From the NCBI GenBank assembly GCA_001004105.1, contig LCQK01000002.1, positions 347-64,346 on the forward strand: DNA of 64,000 nt, in the 5' to 3' direction. Shown here piece by piece: positions 3,758 to 58,769 of this stretch (position 1 is its first letter; each line of letters starts with the position of its first letter). The translations under genes and the position numbers were made by a program. The notes under the pieces were generated by a model. The model ran no database searches. It was not told the origin of the DNA and worked only from the letters and a program-made list of their open reading frames with translations. Source of the stretch: Candidatus Jorgensenbacteria bacterium GW2011_GWB1_50_10. GTDB taxonomy: Bacteria; Patescibacteriota; Minisyncoccia; UBA6257; GWB1-50-10.

Positions 3758-3827
3758 CCCAGTACAATTACGCCGCCACTTCATGTCTTTTGCGCTCAAA
3801 GAGCGCCAGCGGTGTAGTTGTACTGGG
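3758..3827. repeat. Intergenic hairpin element, family A, copy 1: 19-bp stem (with G-U wobbles) enclosing a ~32-nt loop that carries a sub-hairpin GCGCTCAAAGAGCGC
   Basis: 5' arm CCCAGTACAATTACGCCGC at 3758-3776 pairs with GCGGTGTAGTTGTACTGGG at 3809-3827; both mismatches are G-U compatible. Paralogous to the element at 10304-10444. Confidence 0.6.
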
Positions 3828-3923: not shown

Positions 3924-5123
3924 ATGGCAGAAAAAGAAAAATTTCAGCGAACTAAGCCCCACGTTAACGTGGGCACCATCGGTCACGTGGACCACGGCAA
4001 GACCACTCTTACCGCGGCAATTACCCACGTGCTCTTCATGAAAGGTCTTACCAAGAAAGAGGAAGGCGTTGACCAGATCGACAACGCGCCCGAGGAAAAG
4101 GCGCGGGGCATCACCATCGCCTTACACCACTCCGAGTACGAGTCAGAGAAGCGCCACTATGCGCACATTGATGCGCCGGGCCACGCCGATTACATCAAGA
4201 ACATGATTACCGGCGCCGCTCAAATGGATGGCGCGGTTCTCGTCGTTTCCGCGGCTGACGGTCCGATGCCGCAGACCCGGGAGCACATTTTGCTTGCCCG
4301 CCAGGTCGGCGTGCCGGCGATCGTCGTTTTCTTGAACAAAGTGGACATGGTTGACGACAAGGAACTCGTTGACTTAGTGGAATCGGAGGTCCGCGAGCTT
4401 TTGAAGAAGTACGAATTTCCCGGCGATGAAATCCCGGTCATCCGCGGCTCGGCCTTGAAGGCCTTGGAAGCGAAATCGGCCGATGACGAAGCGGCCAAAC
4501 CAATCTTGGATTTGGTGAAAGCTTTGGACGATCACATTCCGGAGCCGGTTCGGGAAACCGATAAACCGTTCCTTATGCCCGTTGAAGATATTTTCTCCAT
4601 TGAGGGCCGCGGCACGGTGGTTACCGGCCGGGCCGAGCGGGGTATTCTTAAAGTGAACGAAGAAGTGGAAATCGTTGGCTTAAAGCCGACGCAGAAGACC
4701 GTCGTGACCGGCGTTGAAATGTTCCAGAAGATTTTGGACGAAGCGCGGGCCGGCGACAACGTCGGTATCCTCCTTCGCGGCCTTAAAAAAGAAGACGTGG
4801 AGCGCGGCCAGGTGATTGCAAAGCCCGGCAGCGTCACGCCACACACTGAATTCGATTGCGAGGTCTACGTCCTCTCTAAAGAGGAAGGCGGCCGGCACAC
4901 GCCGTTCTTTAAGGGTTACAAGCCACAGTTCTATATAAGGACCACGGACGTGACGGGAGAAGTCATTTTGCCCGAAGGAATTGAAATGGTGATGCCGGGC
5001 GACACGATTAAAATTTCCGTTAAGCTCATCTCGCCGGTCGCGCTTGAAGAGAAACAGCGGTTCGCCATCCGCGAGGGCGGCAAGACAGTTGGCGCCGGCG
5101 TCGTCACGAAAATTAATAAATAA
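3924..5123 (+). CDS. tuf: Elongation factor Tu
   Basis: [18 protein letters not shown] and NKVD GTPase motifs; 399 aa. Confidence 0.96.
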
Positions 5124-5158: not shown

Positions 5159-5491
5159 ATGCCGAAAGCATCTGAGCAAGTTCAAAAAGAGAAATTAAGA
5201 TTGCGCATCAGAGCGTACGACGCCAAACTCATTGATTCGTCCTCAAGGCAAATCATTGAGGCTATCCGGCGTCAGGGCGGGGAAGTTGTTGGTCCCATTC
5301 CCTTACCGACCGAGATTCGGCGCTACACCGTGAACCGCTCCACTTTCGTGCACAAGAAATCCCGGGAGCAGTTCGAAATGAGGGTGCACAAGCGCCTGAT
5401 AGATATATTGAATCCCGGTCAAAAAATCATCGAATCTTTGACGGACCTGAACCTCCCCGGCGGAGTTGACGTGGAAATCAAAACTGGTTAG
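5159..5491 (+). CDS. rpsJ: 30S ribosomal protein S10
   Basis: S10 sequence (IRIRAYD...VHKKSREQFE); ends with a TAG stop. Confidence 0.95.
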   Translation: MPKASEQVQKEKLRLRIRAYDAKLIDSSSRQIIEAIRRQGGEVVGPIPLPTEIRRYTVNRSTFVHKKSREQFEMRVHKRLIDILNPGQKIIESLTDLNLPGGVDVEIKTG

Positions 5492-6014: not shown

Positions 6015-6639
6015 AATTTACAACATTGAAAACAAAAAGACAGGCAAGATGGATTTACCCGAGGAAATTTTTCAGGCGCCTTGGCGGCCGGCTTTGGTTC
6101 ATCAAGTGATAACGGCGATTCTCTCAAACCGCCGCCGTCCGTTTGCACACGTGAAAGGCAGAGGCGAAGTGAGAGGCGGCGGCAAAAAACCGTGGCCGCA
6201 GAAGGGCACCGGCCAGGCCCGCCACGGTTCCATTCGTTCGCCTATCTGGAGAGGCGGCGGCGTCACTCACGGACCCTTGAAAGAGCGGACTTACGAAAAA
6301 AAGATAAACAAGGAAATGAAAAAGCAGGCGCTTTTTTCCGTTCTTTCCAAGAAGCTTTCCGACCAGGAACTGAAAATCGTGGACGAAATCAATTTGAAGG
6401 AAGCAAAGACGAAAATCTTAAACGGAATCCTCGGCAAATTTTTCGGCCAGAAGCGGAGCGTTCTCATCGTGCCCAAAACCGGCAACCGCGCTGTCCATCT
6501 TGCCGGCCGGAACATTCCGAAAACCACCGTCGGCAATCCGAACGCCTTGAACGTCTATGACTGCCTGGTCCACAAATACGTCGTTTTTGAGAAAGATGCG
6601 GTCGCCGATTTCGCCGGAACGTTTAAAAAAACAAAATGA
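6004..6639 (+). CDS. rplD: 50S ribosomal protein L4
   Basis: L4-like sequence in the S10-operon position. Confidence 0.9.
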   Translation: MMIEIYNIENKKTGKMDLPEEIFQAPWRPALVHQVITAILSNRRRPFAHVKGRGEVRGGGKKPWPQKGTGQARHGSIRSPIWRGGGVTHGPLKERTYEKKINKEMKKQALFSVLSKKLSDQELKIVDEINLKEAKTKILNGILGKFFGQKRSVLIVPKTGNRAVHLAGRNIPKTTVGNPNALNVYDCLVHKYVVFEKDAVADFAGTFKKTK

Positions 6640-10303: not shown

Positions 10304-10444
10304 CCCGGTACAATTACACCGCTTGCGCTAAAGGCGCACGTCATCAAAAATTAAAAATCAAAACTATGCTGCATACTCACCAAAGGTCAATGCGTATCAA
10401 ACCTACTCTGTCATTCAAGAGAATGGCGGTGTAATTGTACCGGG
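10304..10444. repeat. Intergenic hairpin element, family A, copy 2: perfect 19-bp stem (CCCGGTACAATTACACCGC / GCGGTGTAATTGTACCGGG) enclosing a 103-nt loop; fills the whole rpsQ-rplN gap
   Basis: The 5' arm begins at the first base after the rpsQ TGA stop. The 3' arm ends at the base before the rplN ATG. The loop begins TTGCGCTAAAGGCGCA, which resembles the copy-1 sub-hairpin. Confidence 0.65.
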
Positions 10445-14056: not shown

Positions 14057-15328
14057 ATGGATAAAATCCTTCAGATTTGGCGGATTCCGGATTTGCGGAA
14101 AAAAATCCTGATGGTTTTGCTCTGGCTTTTGGTTTTCCGGGTTTTGGCGGCCATTCCCATTCCGGGAATTGACGCCTTTCGTCTCAACGAATTTTTCTCC
14201 TCCAACCAGCTCTTCGGCTTTTTGAACATTTTCTCCGGCGGCGGCCTTTCCAATTTGTCGGTCGTGATGCTGGGCGTCGGTCCCTACATTACGGCGGTCA
14301 TCATCATGCAACTCCTCACTATTGTTTTTCCCCAGCTCAAAAAGGCCTACTACGAAGAGGGGGCCGAGGGCCGGGCCAAATTCAACCGCTACTCGCGGTG
14401 GCTCACTCTGCCGCTTGCCGCCTTGCAGTCCTACGGATTTTTGAATCTTCTGGCTTCCCGAGAGGTCCTGCCGGCGCTCACCACCACCGGACTTTTAACC
14501 AACGTCGCCATGATTACGGCCGGGAGCATATTCCTCATGTGGATCGGCGAAATCATTTCGGAATATAAAATCGGCAACGGCGTCTCGCTCCTCATCTTTG
14601 CCGGCATTGTAAGCAGCCTGCCGCAATTCATCGTTTCGAGCGTCCTTACGTATACGCCCTCCGTGTTGCCGACCTACATTGCTTTTTTGATTTTGAGCGT
14701 GGTCGTGATTGCCGCCGTCGTCTTCGTAAACGAAGGCGAGCGGAAAATTCCCGTCTCTTACGCCAAACAAGTCCGCGGCAACCGCCTTTACGGGGGCGTG
14801 GCGACTTATCTGCCGCTCAAGGTGAACCAGGCGGGCGTGATTCCCATCATTTTTGCGATTTCCATCCTGCTTTTCCCGCAGTTCATCGCCCAGGCCGCTT
14901 CCATTTTCTCGCCGGAATTGTCGCTCAAATTGAACGAAATCGTGGTTAATATTTTCAACAATCTGGTGATTTACAGCGTGATTTACTTCCTCTTGGTCGT
15001 GGTTTTCACTTATTTTTATACCGCCATCACCTTTGACCCGAAGGAGATTTCCAAAAACTTGCAGCGTTCCGGCGGCTTCATTCCGGGCATCCGGCCGGGG
15101 GAAGCGACGGCGGAAGCCATCAGCCAAGTGGTGAGAAAGACCACGATTTTCGGAGCTTTTTTCCTCGGGTTTATCGCTATTCTGCCGAACCTCACCCAGC
15201 TTGTGACGGGAATCCAGACCTTGACCATCGGGGGCACGGCGCTCCTCATTGTCGTTGCCGTTGCGCTTGAAGTGATGAAGCAGATTGAATCGCAACTGAC
15301 GGTGCGCGAATACGAGGGGATTTTGTAA
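14057..15328 (+). CDS. secY: Preprotein translocase subunit SecY
   Basis: 10-TM protein with conserved SecY blocks; follows rplO. Confidence 0.95.
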   Translation: MDKILQIWRIPDLRKKILMVLLWLLVFRVLAAIPIPGIDAFRLNEFFSSNQLFGFLNIFSGGGLSNLSVVMLGVGPYITAVIIMQLLTIVFPQLKKAYYEEGAEGRAKFNRYSRWLTLPLAALQSYGFLNLLASREVLPALTTTGLLTNVAMITAGSIFLMWIGEIISEYKIGNGVSLLIFAGIVSSLPQFIVSSVLTYTPSVLPTYIAFLILSVVVIAAVVFVNEGERKIPVSYAKQVRGNRLYGGVATYLPLKVNQAGVIPIIFAISILLFPQFIAQAASIFSPELSLKLNEIVVNIFNNLVIYSVIYFLLVVVFTYFYTAITFDPKEISKNLQRSGGFIPGIRPGEATAEAISQVVRKTTIFGAFFLGFIAILPNLTQLVTGIQTLTIGGTALLIVVAVALEVMKQIESQLTVREYEGIL

Positions 15329-15522
15329 ACCTTTTCTTCCCCACGCCAGACGGCTTCGGCTCGGGCGATTTCGTCCCGCTTCGGCGGGACTCAACCCTTC
15401 GCTCGCTTTAGATTCGGTGATATGATGCGTCATATCACCGAATAGCTCGCTCATCCACGACTGCGGTCGGGACTCCGCCGAAGAGTTGAGGGGTAAGTCT
15501 GGCTTTGGGGAAGAAAAGGTTT
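15325..15522. repeat. Composite ~200-nt palindromic element. Its 22-bp terminal inverted repeats are derived from the 26-nt family-B motif. It contains a perfect GTCCCGC-TTCG-GCGGGAC hairpin and a central 13-bp-stem hairpin (TTCGGTGATATGA-TGCG-TCATATCACCGAA).
   Basis: 5' arm AAACCTTTTCTTCCCCACGCCAGAC at 15327-15351 overlaps the secY stop. Its reverse complement lies at 15497-15522. Confidence 0.6.
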
Positions 15523-15552
15523 TTAGCTTGTGTAATTTGGATAAAAAACGCC

Positions 15553-15590
15553 CCGCGACGAACTGTGTCGCGGGGGTGTTGCTTGTTCGG
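15553..15590 (-). terminator. Hairpin CCCCGCGAC-N7-GTCGCGGGG with a T-run on the - strand; likely terminator of the - strand ORF 15595..15858
   Basis: 9-bp GC stem. The reverse-complement flank is CGTTTTTTATCC. Confidence 0.45.
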
Positions 15591-15594
15591 TGCG

Positions 15595-15858
15595 TCAGAG
15601 AGCTACCGCTAAGCCGCCCTCCACTCGGATGGGGCCGAAGCCGTTGATCGCCCGTAGCCAGGTCTTGTCATCATTGACTCGGACCCACAACCACGGAAGC
15701 ACCGTTGGGGTGTAGCGCCACCAGCGTTGGCCGCAAGGGCACGTGAAGAAATTCATTTCGTCGTGTGCGAATGGGTCTTGGTCTTCGTCCGGGTGTACGA
15801 AAGGCCAACGGGAGCTGCTTGCTTCAACTTCTTGGCACCGGCAGTTAGTATTGGGCAT
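15595..15858 (-). CDS. Small Cys/Trp-rich hypothetical protein (CxC...CPC) inserted between secY and adk
   Basis: 87-aa ORF with an AAGGAG Shine-Dalgarno sequence 7 nt upstream, its own terminator, and GC-rich composition. Confidence 0.4.
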   Translation of the reverse strand: MPNTNCRCQEVEASSSRWPFVHPDEDQDPFAHDEMNFFTCPCGQRWWRYTPTVLPWLWVRVNDDKTWLRAINGFGPIRVEGGLAVAL

Positions 15859-15936
15859 CAGTGCTCCTTTTGGTGTGTGGTCAAAATCTATTGGTCAACT
15901 TGAAACACAATATTATAATTCAGTTTTTTAGTCAAT

Positions 15937-16659
15937 TTGAAGCATTCTAAGTTAATAATTGCTACAATAAACTTAATGTCTAAACAAGCAGTTGTAATTT
16001 ATGGCCCTCCGGGTTCTGGCAAGGGGACGCAGGCGGAACTCCTGGAGAGCAAATACAGTTTCATTCATTTTGACACCGGCAAGTATATTGAGTCGCTGGT
16101 TCATGACCCGGAACTCCGGAAAAATTCGCTTATTAAGCGAGAGAAAAAATTGTTTGATAGTGGAACACTTAACACGCCGGCTTGGGTGCTTAGCATCGTA
16201 AAAGATGCGACGATTAAAATCGCCCGCGCGGGCTACAGCATAATTTTCAGCGGTTCGCCGAGAACGCTTTTTGAAGCGTTGGGCGACAGGAGCCACGGCG
16301 GGCTTTTGGCGGCGCTCATTAATCTTTTTGGTCGTAGAAACATCACTATTCTCAAGCTCTCTGTCCGGCCGCAAACTTCCATCAAAAGGAATTCCAGCCG
16401 GCTTGTTTGCTCCGTTTGCGGCTTGCCGATTCTTGCGGCCTCCAAGATTAAAAATTGCGCTTTGTGCGGCGCACCCGCCCGGAAAAGGATTTTTGACAAT
16501 CCGAAGCTCATTAAAGTGCGGTTGAAGCAATACGAAGACCGCACCTTGCCGATTATTCAGAAAGCGAAAAAATTGGGTTTGAAAGTCGTGCAGATAAACG
16601 GCGAGCCCGCACCTTACAAAGTCCACGCGAGTGTTATCAGAGCTTTGAAATTAAAGTGA
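15937..16659 (+). CDS. adk: Adenylate kinase (long form with a Cys4 lid)
   Basis: P-loop GPPGSGKGTQ; lid CSVCG...CALCG; conserved position after secY. Confidence 0.85.
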   Translation: MKHSKLIIATINLMSKQAVVIYGPPGSGKGTQAELLESKYSFIHFDTGKYIESLVHDPELRKNSLIKREKKLFDSGTLNTPAWVLSIVKDATIKIARAGYSIIFSGSPRTLFEALGDRSHGGLLAALINLFGRRNITILKLSVRPQTSIKRNSSRLVCSVCGLPILAASKIKNCALCGAPARKRIFDNPKLIKVRLKQYEDRTLPIIQKAKKLGLKVVQINGEPAPYKVHASVIRALKLK

Positions 16660-17498: not shown

Positions 17499-17951
17499 TC
17501 ACAACGAAGGGTGCAGGTAGACTTTCCCGTACTTGGTGCGTCGGTATCTTCGATAGGGTTTCTTTTTGGAAGGGTGGCGGCTCCATACTTTCTTTTTCCG
17601 CTCTGTTTTACCTCGTTCCCGGTAGCTCTTGTAATTCCTTTCTTTGATAGCTTTTCTTATGCTATTTATGGTTTGCCGGGAAATTAGGAGTCCTCTTGAG
17701 ATTTGCTGCGGCCTCTTCCCTGAATTTACAAATTCTGCCACCGCGGCGCGCATGACTATATTGCGGCGCTCATTGGCGGTGACGAGTGTTTCCAAAAATT
17801 TTCCGGATTTGGTTATTCTGTCCCAGCAAGCTTTCTCCCAATCTTTACGTGAAGAATATTCACTTCTCGGCGGCAATAAGAACGAACCCGCGCCCATATT
17901 GTTGATTTTAGCCATAAACAAGTTAAGTTTAACATATTTAATGTATGACAT
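17499..17951 (-). CDS. TrpR/YerC/YecD-like helix-turn-helix protein
   Basis: The block ANERRNIVMRAAVAEFV..GKRPQQISRGLLISRQTINSIRKAI fits the TrpR-like HTH pattern. The start codon is the centre of a palindrome. Confidence 0.5.
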   Translation of the reverse strand: MSYIKYVKLNLFMAKINNMGAGSFLLPPRSEYSSRKDWEKACWDRITKSGKFLETLVTANERRNIVMRAAVAEFVNSGKRPQQISRGLLISRQTINSIRKAIKERNYKSYRERGKTERKKKVWSRHPSKKKPYRRYRRTKYGKVYLHPSL

Positions 17952-18702: not shown

Positions 18703-18716
18703 GCGTAGGTAGCGAC

Positions 18717-18760
18717 GGGGCTCGGGAGAGCAAAACTCCCGGGCCCTGTTTGTTTTTATA
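18717..18760 (+). terminator. Rho-independent terminator (CGGGAG-N7-CTCCCG followed by a T-run)
   Basis: Stem-loop followed by GTTTGTTTTT. Confidence 0.5.
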
Positions 18761-18796
18761 ATTCCTCGGGCCGGCGTTTTGGGTTTTGTTTTCTCC

Positions 18797-18824
18797 ATTC
18801 GCCAATTCGCGCGAATTGGCGAAT
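18797..18824. repeat. Perfect 28-nt palindrome ATTCGCCAATTCGC|GCGAATTGGCGAAT
   Basis: Seen directly. Its core TTCGCGCGAA is shared with the palindrome at 42696-42731. Confidence 0.5.
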
Positions 18825-19241
18825 AGTCGCTTTTACCGTTCCGGGAACTTTCCGGGATGGGGTTGGTGGGGGGTTATTAAGCAGTTGGATTTTTGGTTTT
18901 ATTTCTAATATAAATAGATTGACGGTCGTCGGTTAAGTCCGACCTCTGGGTTATGGGTAGCTTGGAATCTGCCCGTTATCAACGAGACCGCCTTCTGCCC
19001 CCATTACCCCGGTTGCGGGGTTATAATCCGAGGAAATCTCCGTCCAAAGGAAAACAAAGGGGAATCGGAGCTCTCAATCGGCCAAGCGATAGAGGGGTAG
19101 CCTAACGCCTTGGTCCAGAAAATCGGACCAAGGCGTTGCTCATTTTCATTTCATCGGGCCGGCGTTTTGGGTTTTTAAAATGCGAACAGCCCCGAAAATT
19201 TCTCGGGGCCGTTTGGCGCAGTAACTGCTCCGTCGCGGGGT

Positions 19242-19532
19242 TCAAAAGAGCAGTTCTTTTACTAGTTGGTCGTTCTGGGCGACCATGATTTTGTTACCTT
19301 GGGCGCGCTCGTCGAGCAGGTGCTCGTAGATGCGAAGGGCGTTGCGTACTAATTCGGCGAAAGTGATGGCATCAGATTTTGCCTTGACGTCTTTCAAGCG
19401 CTTGTAGGTTTCATTTGAAAACTGGAACTGCAACCGATGCCCCGCCGACCGTCCTTTTCGAGCCCTTTTCATTATTAGCTCCCGTGATTTGTGTGCCAAA
19501 TCCAGCGTGCCACAGGTTCTTTTAAGAGTCAA
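19242..19532 (-). CDS. Ribbon-helix-helix (CopG/Arc-like) DNA-binding protein
   Basis: Block HRLQFQFSNETYKRLKDVKAKSDAITFAELVRNALRIY resembles an RHH fold; the start is probably the internal Met. Confidence 0.4.
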   Translation of the reverse strand: MTLKRTCGTLDLAHKSRELIMKRARKGRSAGHRLQFQFSNETYKRLKDVKAKSDAITFAELVRNALRIYEHLLDERAQGNKIMVAQNDQLVKELLF

Positions 19533-19578
19533 ATAAATGAACCTTCAACACTAGAAATTTTATAAATTTCCATACTAA

Positions 19579-19812
19579 CTAAGAAGTGGTCTCAATTTTA
19601 ATAAAATCTATTTTATATTGACGTTCTTTAGATGGGTCAAGATGAATTCCTGAATAAGTCCATCCTGGAATATCAGCAACAAAGCTAGTAACTTCTTTAC
19701 AATCAAATGTCGCGACAATAAAATCATCCTTTGGGTTAGGAAAAATAATATTAGTACAACCCATTTTCTCTAAAGCCTCTTTAATTTTCATTAAGATATC
19801 GTTTTTATCCAT
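19579..19812 (-). CDS. Hypothetical small protein (AT-rich island)
   Basis: 77-aa ORF immediately downstream of the ClpP-like gene; about 33% GC. Confidence 0.4.
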   Translation of the reverse strand: MDKNDILMKIKEALEKMGCTNIIFPNPKDDFIVATFDCKEVTSFVADIPGWTYSGIHLDPSKERQYKIDFIKIETTS

Positions 19813-19817
19813 ATTTT

Positions 19818-20363
19818 TTAGTTAATAATTACTATATCTTCTCTTAATACTCCTTTCGGTGGTATTTCTAGATGATTGATGGCTTGCACAATCCCACATT
19901 GAAGTGCTTGTTGTGCAGTAATACTTGTTCCGGTTTTCATCATGTTTTGAACTTTTTGAAGATCTAAACTGCAATTCTCGGAAATAAAATAAGCTATACG
20001 AGTACTCTCTGTTTTTACTGCTAAAAGTTGTTCATTAAGTCCCTTCTCGTCAAATATACCTTGTGTTGTCGCTCCATGCATATAGAATTTTGCATAAGAT
20101 TCTGCCGTTCTCTCTTTTGCGGAAAGATATATCACATTCGCAATAGAATCAATATTATTAGTAGCATGGATAGAAATGGGAATTTTGCAATTTTGAATAA
20201 CAGAAGCTAACGTGAATCCTTCCTGCGTACTCCCTCCTAATGAAGAAAACAATAAAATAATTTTTTTAGCACCTTGTTGAGTAGCGTTATTAACTGCGTT
20301 TAGCAATCTATTACCAAAACCCTGTTCAATTATCCCAGCGAAAACGATATAATAATCCATCAC
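19818..20363 (-). CDS. ClpP/crotonase-fold serine-protease-like protein (S14/S49 class)
   Basis: Aligns by eye to ClpP: LLFSSLGGS against the ClpP SPGGS block, a TNNIDS Ser position, and a FYMHGA His position. AT-rich. Confidence 0.55.
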   Translation of the reverse strand: MMDYYIVFAGIIEQGFGNRLLNAVNNATQQGAKKIILLFSSLGGSTQEGFTLASVIQNCKIPISIHATNNIDSIANVIYLSAKERTAESYAKFYMHGATTQGIFDEKGLNEQLLAVKTESTRIAYFISENCSLDLQKVQNMMKTGTSITAQQALQCGIVQAINHLEIPPKGVLREDIVIIN

Positions 20364-20409
20364 GGTTAAATTATATGTATAAATTTATTTTAAAGATACC
20401 CAACCTTCT

Positions 20410-20787
20410 TCAACTCTTAACAGCAATCATACTTATCTCAACCCGGGCGCCGAGGGGGAGTTCCTTGACGCAAACCGTTTCGCGGGCGGGGAATGGCTCC
20501 GACATATAGCTTCCGTACACTTCATTCACCTCGCCGTAAAGAGATATATCGGTTACGTAAATCGTAGTTTTGACCACATCCTTAAATGACACCCTAGCCG
20601 CCTCAAGAATCGCTTGCAAATTTTTCATTGCTTGGTGAGTTTGTTCTTCAATGCTCCCCTCAAGTGGTTTCCCCTCCGGCGTTAAGTGTACCTGTCCTGA
20701 AGTAAAAACCATATTGCCGTCTACAACCGCCTGCGAGAAAGGACCAGTTGCTTTTGGGGCTTTTGGAGTTTCAATTTTTTTCTTCAT
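20410..20787 (-). CDS. ridA: RidA/YjgF family reactive-intermediate deaminase
   Basis: 125 aa with conserved YjgF blocks (GPFSQAV..G...F.SGQ). Confidence 0.85.
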   Translation of the reverse strand: MKKKIETPKAPKATGPFSQAVVDGNMVFTSGQVHLTPEGKPLEGSIEEQTHQAMKNLQAILEAARVSFKDVVKTTIYVTDISLYGEVNEVYGSYMSEPFPARETVCVKELPLGARVEISMIAVKS

Positions 20788-20798
20788 TGAGAAATTTT

Positions 20799-21236
20799 TT
20801 AAAAGACTTTGCTGCTGATTTCAATTTTCACTCCCTTGATATAATTTTCTATTGATTTATGAACCCCTAATTTCATAGCTTCCTCCGGTGATTTCCAAAA
20901 GAATTCCTTAAGTTCTCTATCATCCAGTTTTACATCATCCGTCAGCGCTTCGCAGAGAACATGGAAATATACGAGGTGGGCTTTTCTATGAAAAGCGGGG
21001 TCATTAATCAGTTCTCCAATATTCACGCAATAGAGGGGCTTAAGTTTCAGTCCTGTTTCTTCTTCACCCTCTCTTTTTGCGGCCTCTAAAATTGTTTCGC
21101 CGAGCTCCACATGTCCTCCGGGGAGAAGATATTTCTCACCCCATTTGTGTGATTTTATGAGTAGAACTTTTTTCTCTCTATTCACAATAAGTGCAGAAGC
21201 AACCACCTCAGCATAATTGTAATTTTTAGGTGTCAT
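20799..21236 (-). CDS. NUDIX hydrolase
   Basis: Nudix box GGHVELGETILEAAKREGEEETG. The start is trimmed to the internal Met to avoid overlap with the upstream gene. Confidence 0.8.
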   Translation of the reverse strand: MTPKNYNYAEVVASALIVNREKKVLLIKSHKWGEKYLLPGGHVELGETILEAAKREGEEETGLKLKPLYCVNIGELINDPAFHRKAHLVYFHVLCEALTDDVKLDDRELKEFFWKSPEEAMKLGVHKSIENYIKGVKIEISSKVF

Positions 21237-21260
21237 GTTTAGAGATATTAGATTGATTAT

Positions 21261-21286
21261 ATAAACCTTTTCTTTTCTAAGCCAGA
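21261..21286 (+). repeat. 26-nt family-B motif ATAAACCTTTTCTTTTCTAAGCCAGA
   Basis: Identical to the copy at 58570-58595. About 25 nt upstream (on the - strand) of the NUDIX start. Confidence 0.6.
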
Positions 21287-21304
21287 TTTTGAAATAGTGG
21301 GGGA

Positions 21305-22093
21305 TTATCTTCTGATAATAAAATAAAACCCCGGGTATACCATTCCATGGAGACCCTTCTGCGGCTCTTTGCTCTCCAATTGGTTGTTGATTTCCCAATC
21401 ATGAGTCATCGCGTAATGCAAACCGACAAGACCATCCTCGGCCGGAGGATTTTCGCAATAATAACCGTCAACTTGGTCGGAAAGAAGCGTAACCTTGGCT
21501 CCAAAACCGAGTGATAGTTCCTTACCGTTTATAAATTTGTAGCCGCGCTTTTCAATTTCTTGCCACATAGCTTCGGGTATCTTTTTGATTGGGTCGCCGT
21601 ACGGGTAAGTAATGATCTTATTTCCGTTTGCTGAAAGATTCAGCGTTGGCCGTTTTCCGGATTCTTGGTGCTCCTTGCCGATAAATTTGTGAGTCCAGTC
21701 CATTGCCGGGTAGTGGTCAAAGGTGTATAGAGGCAGGCCGTCTTTCTGAATGCTAATAATTAGGCTGTAAATCGGCTCACGGGCGGCATAGCGATACGTC
21801 CCGTCAATTGGGTCTACTGTCAGTAAAAATTCCCCTTCCGGGTCAAATTTGTCCACCAAATCTGTTTTTTCTTCGGCAATCAGACGGCATTGAATAAGCT
21901 CCGTTTTGCTGATGGCGGACAATACCGCTTCTTGAACTGCAAAGTCCGCTTCGGTAACCACGTCAACCTCATCGATTCCCGTACTCTTCTTTTTCTTAGG
22001 AGATATTTCCCGCTGCATCTTCACGGCAATTTTACCCGCCTCAATAAAGGCGGGTTCTAATTTCTTAATCGTTTCTAGATAACTCTCAATCAT
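21305..22093 (-). CDS. Inositol monophosphatase family protein (SuhB/CysQ-like)
   Basis: DPIDGT motif; 262 aa. Confidence 0.82.
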   Translation of the reverse strand: MIESYLETIKKLEPAFIEAGKIAVKMQREISPKKKKSTGIDEVDVVTEADFAVQEAVLSAISKTELIQCRLIAEEKTDLVDKFDPEGEFLLTVDPIDGTYRYAAREPIYSLIISIQKDGLPLYTFDHYPAMDWTHKFIGKEHQESGKRPTLNLSANGNKIITYPYGDPIKKIPEAMWQEIEKRGYKFINGKELSLGFGAKVTLLSDQVDGYYCENPPAEDGLVGLHYAMTHDWEINNQLESKEPQKGLHGMVYPGFYFIIRR

Positions 22094-22102
22094 TTTTCAA
22101 TT

Positions 22103-22128
22103 ATAAACTTTTTCTTTCCTAAGCCAGA
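22103..22128 (+). repeat. 26-nt family-B motif variant ATAAACTTTTTCTTTCCTAAGCCAGA
   Basis: 2 substitutions relative to the 21261 copy. 10 nt upstream (on the - strand) of the IMPase-family start. Confidence 0.6.
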
Positions 22129-22233
22129 CACAATTTAAAACTATTGACAAATAACGTAATTTTTGATTCTATTTAAGACAGTTATTTCTGCAGCCGTGCA
22201 AGGCGGCCCCGGCCTCGGGCAGAGGCGAATTTT

Positions 22234-27201: not shown

Positions 27202-27922
27202 GTTGCTGGAAAAGAAATGGCGGAAGTTTTTGCGCCTCCGGCCGGTTTTTTCGTTCATTCCTTTTCTGGATTTCGTGATTGTTTCGGGTTCTTTAGCCAC
27301 CGGTAACGTTCACGAGAATTCGGATTTTGACGTAATTGTGGGCGCGCGAAAAGGTAAGATTTTCACGGTGCGGGCTTTCTGCGTTTTCGTTTTCGGGATT
27401 TTAGGCCTGCGGCGGCGGGGGATAGACCACAAAGCAGCGTCCAGCGATAAAGTTTGTTTCAATCACTTCGTGACACCGAAGGCCTATCGGCTTTCGCCGC
27501 CCTACAACGATTACTGGGTGAAGCTTTACCAGAATCTCGTGCCGGTTTATGGCAGAGAAAAGGCGGTAAGGGATTTTTTCCGGGCTAACGATTGGGCACT
27601 GCCTGCCGGCAGGCAGGGGCCACGCGAGACAATTTTCAGCGAAAAGTACTGGCAGAGCACAAACCCCAATCCTGCAGGTGGTATACATATGTATACCACC
27701 TGGATTTTAAAGACTTTCTTTGAGTTTGTTTTGCAGGGCTGGATCTTGGGCCGGGTTTTTGAAAAGTTCGTGAAAATCATAGAGCTCCATTACATCAAAA
27801 AGGGAATCAAGAACGGCGCTTTGGGTTTCAAGCCGCGCGTCCGCTACGGCGACGACGAATTGGAATTTCACCCCGACACCGCCCGGATTGAGGAGATGCT
27901 CAAAGAGGACTTGCGTTTTTAG
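27167..27922 (+). CDS. Nucleotidyltransferase-domain protein (Pol-beta-like NTase fold)
   Basis: Motif GSLATG(N5)SDFDVIV followed by a downstream acidic residue; 35-nt overlap with rmuC. Confidence 0.55.
   Translation: MMDREAQTKRNKLLEKKWRKFLRLRPVFSFIPFLDFVIVSGSLATGNVHENSDFDVIVGARKGKIFTVRAFCVFVFGILGLRRRGIDHKAASSDKVCFNHFVTPKAYRLSPPYNDYWVKLYQNLVPVYGREKAVRDFFRANDWALPAGRQGPRETIFSEKYWQSTNPNPAGGIHMYTTWILKTFFEFVLQGWILGRVFEKFVKIIELHYIKKGIKNGALGFKPRVRYGDDELEFHPDTARIEEMLKEDLRF
27674..27701. repeat. Perfect 28-nt palindrome CAGGTGGTATACAT|ATGTATACCACCTG (family C) inside the NTase CDS
   Basis: Core GGTGGTATACATATGTATACCACC is identical to the copy at 40495-40518. Confidence 0.7.
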
Positions 27923-40487: not shown

Positions 40488-40528
40488 AAACCAAGGTGGT
40501 ATACATATGTATACCACCTTGGTTTTTT
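40488..40528 (+). terminator. Family-C palindrome AAACCAAGGTGGTATACA|TATGTATACCACCTTGGTTT followed by TTTTT; rho-independent terminator
   Basis: 18-bp stem followed by a T-run, after the DUF1653 gene. Confidence 0.6.
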
Positions 40529-40601: not shown

Positions 40602-40970
40602 CTAGGAGTGCAGGGAACTCCAGCGGCCTCGGCCGTAGGAAGCGGGGTATTTTTGAAATTTATTCCTTTTAGGAAATTTTGAGTAAATTTTCTTTTTATA
40701 ATTGAGTTTTTTCAGGCCGCGCTTGATGAAAATCACGGTTTTTCTCGCGACGTCAGCTTTCTTGCTAGTTTCTCTCAAGCTTTCACCCTGCTTCAGGAAA
40801 TAAAGAGCAGCCAATCTTTTTTCCAAAATGACTTTTTCTTCTTCGGTTAGGAATTTTGAAAGAAAATCCGCCGGGCCGGATTTCTTGGATTTTTCAACCT
40901 CGGCCCAGAAAATTTTCCAAATCTCCTTTCTCAATCCCTCGCTAAAATTTTTCCTATTAGTTCTCGGCAT
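40602..40970 (-). CDS. TrpR/YerC/YecD-like helix-turn-helix protein
   Basis: Block EEEKVILEKRLAALYFLKQGESLRETSKKADVARKTV. The start is set at the internal Met; the listed ORF extends to 41024. Confidence 0.55.
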   Translation of the reverse strand: MPRTNRKNFSEGLRKEIWKIFWAEVEKSKKSGPADFLSKFLTEEEKVILEKRLAALYFLKQGESLRETSKKADVARKTVIFIKRGLKKLNYKKKIYSKFPKRNKFQKYPASYGRGRWSSLHS

Positions 40971-40972
40971 GG

Positions 40973-40996
40973 GTGGTATACTTAAGTATACCACCG
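40973..40996. promoter_or_regulatory. Family-C palindrome variant GGTGGTATACTTAAGTATACCACC, abutting the start of the TrpR-like gene
   Basis: Perfect 24-nt dyad, 2 nt from the ATG. Confidence 0.5.
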
Positions 40997-41148
40997 GGGA
41001 TTGAAATAGGAAGTGGCTGGGCATAAAATTGACAAAGGTATTAATATTTGACTGGGGGCAGACGCTTTACGGCGGTTTTCCCCAAGTATTCGGAGAAAAT
41101 TAAAAAAATACGGCCTCATTGTGATAGAGTTGTGATAAAATTAATACA

Positions 41149-44831: not shown

Positions 44832-44844
44832 TTTAATATGAATT

Positions 44845-44932
44845 GCCGCCAAAGAAAAACTTGAAATTGTCAGCGGTGCGGCTCTGCCGCCAAAGAAAAA
44901 CTTGAAATTGTCAGCGGTGCGGCTCCGCCGCC
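44845..44932. repeat. 41-nt tandem direct repeat x2.1 (GCCGCCAAAGAAAAACTTGAAATTGTCAGCGGTGCGGCTCY) upstream of gyrB
   Basis: Seen directly; the units differ at one position. Confidence 0.8.
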
Positions 44933-53512: not shown

Positions 53513-53517
53513 GCAAC

Positions 53518-53549
53518 TCCATTTATGGACGACCGTCCATAAATGGAGT
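53518..53549. terminator. Bidirectional terminator palindrome CTCCATTTATGGACG-AC-CGTCCATAAATGGAG
   Basis: Lies between convergent gatB and miaA. Confidence 0.55.
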
Positions 53550-57412: not shown

Positions 57413-57843
57413 GGAACCGGCCGGGGTTCACCACCACCCCCGGAAAGAGGTGGGAGCGAGCCGAAGCTCGCGCGCAAGGCGTCGTGGAAGTTCACGGCGC
57501 TTTTTGTTTTAGTAAGAAGACCCGTTCCATAGGTTTTTCGAGTTGGGATTTGTAGAGTTTATATTAATGCTGTAAAATGCAAATATGTTGAAAGCAATAT
57601 TGAGTGCCTAGGCCGGAGTCGGGGATCCTCATATGGGCACAAAAGTTAGATCAGAGTTTTTCAGCCGGAGTCGGAACCCCTCATTGCTTCTCACATGAAA
57701 AATTGAGAAGGATTCAGTGAATAGAAACCGCTTTAACGGCGGTTTCTGTCACTACAGAACATCTAAATATAGGAGATAATCATTGAGAAATCAGAAGATT
57801 GACGGTACTAGACCGTTTACATTATGCTGATAGCCCTACCGTC

Positions 57844-57867
57844 AACGGCTAGCCGTTAAGGTATAAT
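57844..57867 (+). promoter_or_regulatory. 14-nt palindrome AACGGCTAGCCGTT followed by a TATAAT -10 box, upstream of the HicB-like gene
   Basis: Palindrome at 57844-57857; TATAAT at 57862-57867; GTG start at 57874. Confidence 0.4.
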
Positions 57868-57873
57868 AAAAAT

Positions 57874-58281
57874 GTGAGAATAGATAACAATATCATCCCG
57901 GTAATATTAGTGGTTTATAAGTCAAAGAATGGTTATTGGCATGGTTTTTGCCACCCATACGATGTGTCTTGTAATGCAGAAATTAAAGAAGAGGTTATAA
58001 ACAACCTAGAAGAATTGGTGGAAACCTACGAAAAATCGTTAGAGCGCTATGGGAACCCAATACATCTAATAGAGAAGAAACTTTCTGATAAAGAAGATCA
58101 AGAGAAGTTCAAGAAAATATGGCCGTATGTTTCTAAAAAGATTGCGGAGCATATTAAAACCGCACATAGTCCTATTCGATACTCTCAATATTTATCACGA
58201 GCCAAGAAATTCAGTATTAAATCTGGAGCAGATATAACTTATTCTCACAGAAGTTTATCGTTAACACCCTCACCTCGCTGA
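57874..58281 (+). CDS. HicB-like (UPF0150) antitoxin-like protein; AT-rich
   Basis: N-terminal pattern IPVILVVYKSKNGYWHGFCHPYDVSCNAEIKEEVINNLEE resembles the HicB N-terminus. Confidence 0.3.
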   Translation: MRIDNNIIPVILVVYKSKNGYWHGFCHPYDVSCNAEIKEEVINNLEELVETYEKSLERYGNPIHLIEKKLSDKEDQEKFKKIWPYVSKKIAEHIKTAHSPIRYSQYLSRAKKFSIKSGADITYSHRSLSLTPSPR

Positions 58282-58285
58282 TATT

Positions 58286-58564
58286 GTGGCGGCGCCGACA
58301 GATATTAATTTTGATGATTTCTATGAAGCAGTTAAATCATTAGCTGCACAAAAAGGATTTATTTGTAAACCCTATAAGGGTAAGAAAGCTTCTGCTATAT
58401 GTTTTGAATTTTTCCGAGATGGAGAAAATAAACCGTTTGAGATATTTTGCGTTCATGAAGATAAGAAAAATAGAGTTATATGGTCAGATGATCTCAAAAA
58501 GGCATGTAAAGCGTTAGGAGTAACTAAAAAAGAATTTATTGATTTTACAAAAAATAAAGTTTAA
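58286..58564 (+). CDS. Hypothetical small protein (possibly HicA-like); AT-rich
   Basis: 92 aa, basic, 4-nt gap from the upstream gene. Confidence 0.3.
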   Translation: MAAPTDINFDDFYEAVKSLAAQKGFICKPYKGKKASAICFEFFRDGENKPFEIFCVHEDKKNRVIWSDDLKKACKALGVTKKEFIDFTKNKV

Positions 58565-58569
58565 CTAAT

Positions 58570-58595
58570 ATAAACCTTTTCTTTTCTAAGCCAGA
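58570..58595 (+). repeat. 26-nt family-B motif ATAAACCTTTTCTTTTCTAAGCCAGA (identical to the 21261 copy)
   Basis: Seen directly, 6 nt after the stop of the upstream + gene. Confidence 0.65.
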
Positions 58596-58614
58596 ATTAT
58601 TCTTCCCAACTAAA

Positions 58615-58769
58615 AAATCTGCCCCGCGTGTGTCTCTGACGGCAACTCTCGGAGGCAAAAAAGCTCGGTGTCGCCTGAGGCGACTTTTTCGCCGAGAGCG
58701 TAGCGGTGCGCCTTGCTGCTGGAGCGGGGCGACACCCGGTGGCGGAGGAGATATACGCGGGGCAGATTT
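58615..58769. repeat. Nested inverted-repeat structure: AAATCTGCCCCGCG ... CGCGGGGCAGATTT flanking CTCTCGG...CCGAGAG and GTCGCC-TGAG-GCGAC; the 3' arm overlaps the dnaE stop
   Basis: Seen directly; 14-bp outer arms. Confidence 0.5.

Follow-up and report, generated by a model that had tools for sequence, protein, structure and literature searches.

A palindromic element of modular make-up at the secY operon end of a Jorgensenbacteria genome

What is a highly structured palindrome of about 200 nt doing directly behind secY, the last gene of a long ribosomal-protein cluster? The question is raised by a 64-kb stretch of DNA (the whole of which we call the window) from a Candidatus Jorgensenbacteria genome (Parcubacteria, Candidate Phyla Radiation, CPR) of Rifle groundwater. 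A preliminary description of this stretch had noticed such an element between secY and adk and had suggested either a MITE (short for miniature inverted-repeat transposable element) or a structured small RNA. We compared the locus with that of relatives designated L001–L095. The closest species-level relatives by SecY are Jorgensenbacteria metagenome-assembled genomes, and the still closer relatives L087, L088 and L089 were located via a protein database, beyond the 80 species-level set. We favour, with moderate confidence, the answer that small dispersed modules make up a mosaic specific to this lineage, which likely works as an operon-end terminator or 3'-end stabiliser.

Anatomy of the element and its counterparts in relatives

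The element comprises 196 nt (15327–15522) and is highly structured, as had been described. Its minimum free energy (MFE) as RNA is -107 kcal/mol versus -67 for shuffled sequences, with a z-score of -9.96 on the plus strand and -9.35 on the minus strand, and no shuffle of the region reaches its folding energy. The outer helix, P1, indeed overlaps the secY stop codon TAA (15326–15328, plus strand), the final two bases of which are the first bases of the stem. The arms had been given as 22 perfectly complementary base pairs, which needs correction. P1 consists of 17 perfect base pairs (15327–15343/15506–15522), an asymmetric 1x2 internal loop (C15344 versus TT15504–15505) and 7 further base pairs (15345–15351/15497–15503), and the interval assigned to the 22-bp 3' arm in fact spans 26 nt. 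The 5' arm (15327–15351, plus strand), made of 17 nt, the unpaired C15344 and then GCCAGAC, is an inverted, diverged copy of a repeat that we call module B, and it is 100% identical in L087 and L004. P1 is closed by CC...GG (GG at 15518–15519) with TTTTT immediately after, giving a G+C-closed stem followed by a U-run. The space between the arms is 145 nt instead of a compact loop of 3–8 nt, and a terminator scan makes no call on the element.

Conserved and variable segments alternate inside P1. Backbone segment S2 (GGCTTCGGCTCGGGCGATTTC, 15352–15372, plus strand as for all segments here) is conserved with 1 difference from L087, and it leads into the first hairpin slot, H1 (15373–15390), where the UUCG tetraloop hairpin GTCCCGC-TTCG-GCGGGAC is present as previously noted. 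Segment S3 (15391–15411), carrying the first GCTCGCT motif (15401–15407), is identical in L087. The second slot, H2 (15412–15443), has the core GGTGATATGATGCGTCATATCACC; the central perfect hairpin reported earlier is thus there, but its stem has 14 bp and not 13. The conserved segment S4 (15444–15453), with the second GCTCGCT motif (15445–15451), separates H2 from the third slot, H3 (15454–15472; TCC-A-CGAC-TGCG-GTCG-GGA). The remainder (15473–15522) is module B in rightward orientation, comprising the conserved CTCCGCCGAAGAGTTGAGGGGTAAG and the P1 3' arm (GTCTGGC at 15497–15503 and TGGGGAAGAAAAGGTTT at 15506–15522). In addition, the S3 segment CTCAACCCTTCG is able to pair with 15479–15490. 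Since this interior CTCAACCCTTCG is the reverse complement of CGAAGAGTTGAG adjoining the 3' arm, the element looks like an inverted duplication of a ~45-nt module around a central segment. The closing helix thus consists of two inverted module B copies, and the interior of a conserved C-rich backbone with two GCTCGCT motifs and three exchangeable hairpin slots.

Comparison with L087 (SecY 97% identical) shows which parts are kept and which are exchanged. L087 holds the element at the orthologous site and is the sole other lineage with it. Between the two, the divergence of secY is 10.7% over all bases and 24.3% at third codon positions, and it is highest in the last 200 nt, adjoining the element. 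Against this third-codon divergence, only 9 of the 155 positions aligned in the element backbone are different (binomial p ~9e-10), and the flank from the T-run (TTTTT, 15520–15524) up to the convergent terminator (15520–15545, plus strand) has 2 differences. By this pattern, the backbone is either constrained or recently shared. All three internal hairpins are swapped for unrelated ones in L087: H1 is GTGG-CTTCA-CCAC, H2 is a 19-bp hairpin of the CAACTCCAnTTATGrACG family and H3 is CCCC-TTCG-GGGG.

The other close relatives differ more. L088 (91% SecY identity) has a plain hairpin only after secY, while in L089 (also 91%) another palindromic element abuts the stop, and a copy of the window's 3' portion comes after it. 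In the partial contig L004 the 5' arm is kept and the interior diverges. A blastn search of the element against 84 loci returned same-lineage copies only. Applied to the 64-kb window and ~0.6 Mb of related loci, blastn and nhmmer detected copies at the orthologous site alone, in the same lineage and in L087, and no second full-length one. A look-up of cluster members for further strain variants of the element led to the same genome only. At the element itself, L001, an assembly of the same population, has an A-to-C change at its position 4294, equal to window position 15350 in the inner part of the outer stem, and the L004 contig terminates inside the element. The variant and the contig end together suggest strain heterogeneity or assembly trouble at the palindrome.

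The junction had been called normally one of the most conserved in bacteria, but in this clade it is not rigid: across the 80 species-level relatives, secY and adk may overlap or may stand >2 kb apart. No insert is present in the nearest species representatives (L034, L005 and L041, 82% SecY identity), so the adjacency of secY and adk is likely ancestral. Relative to it, the sequences make the element a likely insertion, and the description of a composite element with inverted arms of a recurrent motif, inserted at this junction, stands.

Module B and other dispersed repeats

The arm motif is not confined to the element. AAACCTTTTCTTnnnnnnGCCAGA has four plus-strand matches in the window (15327, 21263, 22105 and 58572) versus 0.13 expected, in line with the relationship to a family-B motif proposed before, and the 3' arm of the element is a gapped reverse copy of it. 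Module B takes roughly the form TGGCTT-N15-17-TATAAT. Copies reading TCTGGCTTAGrAAAGAAAAGGTTT plus TATAAT lie at 21263–21289, 22105–22129 and 58572–58598 in the window and at 1152–1178 and 1772–1797 in L086. The free copies are solitary, in one orientation only and ahead of genes, with 6–19 nt between them and the start codons of accessory genes: NUDIX and inositol-monophosphatase genes in the window and a hydrolase gene in L086. A second L086 copy, at 1152–1178, is upstream of the next gene. One copy, at 58572, comes after an element at the dnaE 3' end, and another comes after the L089 secY element. Furthermore, element positions 15473–15522 are homologous to L089 4450–4504 and L086 1769–1810, and this homology runs ~25 nt past the arm.

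These placements give module B a promoter-like appearance, as if it served as a cassette promoter for successive accessory genes; two of them would imply leaderless mRNAs. A sigma-70 scan calls no module B site because the -35 is non-canonical, so a promoter is what we infer here. In the element's own arms the -10-like hexamers are degenerate (TAGCTT and CAAAAT), and the scan calls nothing there. When metagenomes were scanned for canonical motif B, 2 contigs matched, of which one belongs to the same genome. Two low-GC islands of the window (~19000–22100 and ~57500–58600, 0.39–0.43 versus about 0.50) each have a module B copy at the right boundary; they hold accessory genes, namely NUDIX, inositol monophosphatase, perhaps a ClpP-like gene, and small orphan genes.

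The hairpins have dispersed relatives as well. The H2 core GGTGATATGATGCGTCATATCACC of the window belongs to a 24-nt palindrome family, GGTGnTAT-N8-ATAnCACC, with 7 other copies: 27677–27700, 40495–40518 and 40972–40995 in the window, 5496 and 5984 in L091, and 5793 and 7082 in L007. Several copies flank TrpR-like helix-turn-helix (HTH) genes (window 40602–41024; also in L091). The window encodes a further TrpR-like protein at 17499–17951, and among the conserved neighbours of secY-adk-map is a TrpR-like gene. Being so often beside TrpR-like genes, the palindrome is possibly an operator or terminator module. A scan of viral contigs for it gave no match. The hairpin in the H2 slot of L087 (3226–3263) belongs to another family, CAACTCCAnTTATGrACG..CGTyCATAAnTGGAGT, with further copies at window 53514–53549, between convergent genes, and at L095 4701–4738, after dnaE; its palindrome is maintained by covarying changes.

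A third family, which we term A, is MITE-like, with 19-nt inverted ends CCCRGTACAATTACRCCGC, and occurs at 3758–3827 and 10304–10444 in the window and at 5197–5339 in L095. One copy exactly spans the interval from the rpsQ stop to the rplN ATG in the window, and the L095 homologue, upstream of thrS, has the same 19-nt terminal inverted repeats (TIRs) and the same interior. To judge from such copies, small repeats clearly move in Jorgensenbacteria genomes. Two further features of the window may be recorded here. A 539-nt gene-free stretch at 18703–19241, with a predicted structure of -228 kcal/mol, a 33-nt repeat (18755–18787/19143–19175) and no Rfam match, is a candidate for a large non-coding RNA (ncRNA), and at 44844–44925 a 41-nt unit (TGCCGCCAAAGAAAAACTTGAAATTGTCAGCGGTGCGGCTC) stands twice in tandem, without any difference.

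The operon end and a wider class of stop-abutting elements

The gene secY (14057–15328, plus strand; Pfam SecY match 1e-99) is the last gene of the long S10-spc-secY ribosomal-protein cluster, and adk (15937–16659) followed by map lies downstream. The 608-bp gap between secY and adk in the window holds the element, a GC-rich hairpin and a minus-strand open reading frame (ORF). The latter, orf87 (15595–15858, minus strand), is an orphan small protein gene of 87 codons, convergent with secY, with an AAGGAG Shine-Dalgarno sequence 5 nt ahead of its ATG and a promoter-like TTGACT-N17-TATTGT on the minus strand at 15907–15935. The hairpin (15551–15575) bears TTTTTT on the minus strand; it serves the orf87 unit as terminator and secY as a weak backup. 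A separate promoter-like site for adk is found at 15892–15919. Given the promoter and terminator of the orf87 unit and the separate promoter of adk, secY faces a convergent transcription unit. No Pfam domain was found in orf87, and its sole match among 5.8 billion proteins is orf87 itself, so it offers no clue to mobility. In the relatives L087 (3360–3700), L088 (4300–4690), L089 (4520–4850) and L090 (~1700–1960), the minus strand immediately upstream of adk carries a consensus promoter (TTGACA-N16-TATAAT) that heads a unit of ~300 nt with no conserved ORF and an CTGTCTGG...CCAGACAG stem. This unit, a candidate ncRNA, terminates beside the secY element, and orf87 occupies the corresponding slot in the window.

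Elements of comparable placement are found elsewhere. After secY, an element of 127–202 nt (mostly 140–200 nt) is present in 10 of ~37 loci with SecY identity of at least 70%, starting -3 to +7 nt from the stop, with an outer stem of 9–17 bp and a T-run after it. C exceeds G in nine of the ten extracted elements and equals it in that of the window, and CTCGC outnumbers GCGAG by 19 to 2 across them. A single joint alignment failed because the ten split into at least three families.

Two of these families are better defined. Family R1 is a branched element of ~150 nt found in the window after dnaE (58615–58769, minus strand), in L089 after secY (4272–4423) and in L005 directly after map (6239–6390), the last of these found by a covariance model; a T-run follows every member. 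In the core, the window dnaE element is ~83% identical to the L089 secY element, whereas their closing stems are entirely different. The closing stem shows 9 compensatory pairs (RNAalifold), and 4 one-sided changes stay G-U on the gene-sense strand. Family iii, with 14 covarying pairs, follows secY in L014, L031, L017 and L090 and follows map in L034, where secY-adk-map is contiguous. This placement of R1 and family iii after secY, map and dnaE puts such elements at operon ends, in sense orientation. We also inspected the sequence behind dnaE in relatives for a terminator hairpin lacking the R1 core, which would show that this core enters terminator loops. The relatives have either a 14–23 nt dnaE-thrS gap, with thrS coming straight after dnaE, or unrelated inserts. 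The secY element of the window gave only trivial hairpin matches (<9 bits) to the R1 covariance model with filters off and no match to the family-iii profile. With Rfam, the window gave one tRNA only, the element region had no match at the gathering score and its best match up to E 10 was noise, and 25 related loci gave no matches.

Sequence and position, then, show the secY element to be modular and assembled from dispersed pieces. It stands where the operon ends against a convergent unit, and its design recurs elsewhere. Its anatomy and position make a terminator, insulator or 3'-end-protector role on the secY transcript most likely. On the model that we propose, the element would act in cis on that transcript. 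Its internal hairpins would fold during transcription, and the 24-bp P1 helix would then close the whole domain just before the U-run (GG-UUUUU). Since P1 starts inside the stop codon, it would close only after the last ribosome departs. Closure would end transcription of the ribosomal-protein operon before collision with the orf87 unit, or give an exonuclease-resistant 3' end, or both. As to origin, the element would have arisen as small repeat modules accreted and were duplicated in inverted orientation at a junction prone to insertions, not by transposition of a 200-bp unit. The preliminary description had named, among the outcomes contrary to its own proposals, a secY transcript that simply ends here without any separate RNA. 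That outcome comes close to the best-supported reading, but the structure goes far beyond a plain terminator and is part of a wider class.

Several observations weigh against the role proposed. A branched interior of 145 nt is atypical of an intrinsic terminator, and the stem beside the U-run is A/U-rich. The strand evidence is ambiguous: the two helix differences between the window and L087, at 15485 and 15510, would be G-U on the minus strand and C-A on the plus strand, and inspection of the outer stems across the class shows 10 A-C versus 6 G-T mismatches. In 8 of the ten class elements, folding of the minus strand equals or surpasses that of the plus strand. The low backbone divergence could equally stem from recent recombination of the cassette between lineages instead of selection, and around the 3' end of secY the L004 sequence has the look of a recombinant. 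Having no canonical -35, module B escaped the sigma-70 scan. Finally, the closest element-free relatives (L088, L034 and L092) evidently cope without it.

Alternative readings and known systems

One alternative enlarges the claim. It holds that Jorgensenbacteria possess an undescribed class of large branched 3'-UTR (untranslated region) RNA domains, several families of which relocate between operon ends. We regard this as unlikely, though less so than the alternatives that follow. The class design may consist of a closing stem from the stop codon, a conserved C-rich CUCGCU core, exchangeable hairpin slots and a terminal U-run. The class may have arisen from a mobile core invading the loops of pre-existing terminator hairpins, or from RNA modules that bind a protein or Rho and tie transcript termination or stability to the end of translation. 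The secY element may then be a variant with a captured portable promoter as one stem strand.

Could the element instead be an independent structured ncRNA gene, 6S-like or protein-binding, with its own promoter or cut from the secY 3' UTR? Conserved junction segments combined with freely varying hairpins resemble functional RNAs, as do the long closing stem, internal bubble and apical hairpin within ~196 nt; the strong CTCGC strand asymmetry across the class and the covarying closing stems of the sister families point the same way. Against this stand the absence of any Rfam match even up to E 10 and of an evident promoter for the element, which leaves the discrete small RNA first suggested without support. 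Moreover, the swapped hairpins copy dispersed genomic modules and are not compensatory variants, the core pairing differs between the MFE folds of the window and L087, and the element is confined to two lineages and absent from relatives at 82–91% SecY identity. We consider this reading improbable. Identity with 6S or signal recognition particle (SRP) RNA was rejected since no model matched, and a retron ncRNA was rejected with no reverse transcriptase nearby (neighbours secY, orf87, adk and map).

The classical MITE named at the outset would be a non-autonomous transposon that a transposase encoded elsewhere moved via its TIRs to a landing site after secY. The inverted arms of ~24 bp (17 + 7 bp with one internal loop) qualify as TIRs and enclose no ORF, the arm motif recurs, and between the window and L087 the element is better conserved than its flanks. 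Its presence among relatives is patchy, the L004 contig breaks within it, and family A provides a genuine MITE-like case with conserved TIRs at different sites in related genomes. Nevertheless, there is no target-site duplication (the flanks are TTTGT/TTAGC, or TAAA/TTTT when trimmed) and no second full copy in the sequence searched. Both known carriers hold the element at the orthologous site, and the arms are imperfect and differ between lineages whereas the interior backbone is conserved. The other module B copies stand alone in a single orientation ahead of genes, and L089 has the 3' module only, joined to another element. No transposase gene is present among the genes next to it (secY, orf87, adk and map) in the window. 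A MITE is accordingly a poor candidate. An integron attC site was also dismissed, since the motif is no palindrome and does not keep a set orientation to gene 3' ends.

A function at the level of DNA appears similarly doubtful. Here, back-to-back promoter-like modules would flank the operator-like palindrome H2, bound by a TrpR-like regulator, and form a regulatory or insulator region or a cruciform. The positions of module B immediately upstream of genes, ending in TATAAT, the company that the 24-nt palindromes keep with TrpR-like HTH genes in the window and L091 and the conservation of such a gene near secY-adk-map all fit, and both strands fold equally well. However, the -10-like hexamers of the element are the degenerate ones given above, and no gene lies ahead of either arm: the right one points at the convergent terminator, the left one at antisense secY. 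In addition, L087 has a different hairpin in the H2 slot, and the strand-asymmetric, C-rich composition of the class favours a single-strand function.

Functionless debris, gathered as palindromic junk at an insertion hot spot, is the least probable of all, for although the junction is highly variable (overlapping genes to inserts >2 kb), modules are swapped between close lineages and the closest relatives lack the element, the backbone is ~4x more conserved than third codon positions and the design of stop-abutting start, long stem and T-run recurs at operon ends in unrelated sequence families. A read-through extension of secY was likewise set aside, since its frame ends 32 codons on and shows no conservation.

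CPR/Patescibacteria genomes are tiny, and to our knowledge almost nothing is known of how their transcripts end or are processed. If the favoured reading is true, these bacteria would end operons with elaborate modular structures, which they also shuffle, instead of plain hairpins, and a portable promoter module would double as half of a terminator stem. Were the element junk, the junction would still record a recombination and insertion hot spot inside the most conserved gene cluster of bacteria. The practical yield is a set of alignments and the R1 covariance model for dispersed element families.

Among known systems, the closest analogues are the Correia elements, with REP/BIME and the pneumococcal BOX/RUP/SPRITE mosaics also close. 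In Neisseria, outward-facing promoters can arise from the ends of Correia repeats (CREE/NEMIS), and RNase III binds or cuts the transcribed hairpin (PMC2649163, PMC10969869). Like CREE, the secY element is intergenic, 100–200 bp in size and closed by inverted repeats of ~26 bp. Its arms, homologous to module B, may also be promoter-like and face outward, their own -10-like hexamers being degenerate. In contrast to CREE, which number >100 copies per genome and have a conserved core with an integration host factor (IHF) site, it is single-copy in the sequence examined, without target-site duplication, and has imperfect arms and internal hairpins that can be swapped.

The REP/BIME repeats of enterobacteria stabilise the mRNA upstream of them and can attenuate transcription. 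The pneumococcal SPRITE resembles a Rho-independent terminator (PMC10969869, PMC3049150, PMC3184786). With these families the secY element shares the mosaic of small palindromic modules in 3' intergenic regions, nested or inserted in one another; it differs in that its modules are unrelated to them in sequence and that one long helix, starting in the stop codon, closes it into a single branched domain; no RAYT-type transposase was seen either, though no search aimed at one was made. The likeness to an intrinsic terminator lies in the helix closed by C-G pairs and then UUUUU, the A-run upstream and the location at a transcription-unit end facing a convergent gene. Yet its "loop" is 145 nt with three hairpins, whereas ordinary terminators of the same genome are simple hairpins (e.g., 15551–15575, 22840 and 51399). 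Nearer at hand, R1 and family iii resemble it in abutting the stop of secY, map or dnaE in sense orientation and in the long closing stem with T-run and C-rich CUCGCU loops, although it fits neither model and its 3' stem strand is module B. The secY element thus joins the intergenic palindromic-repeat and terminator-like kind, now in a poorly studied phylum, with a proposed mechanism that is plausible.

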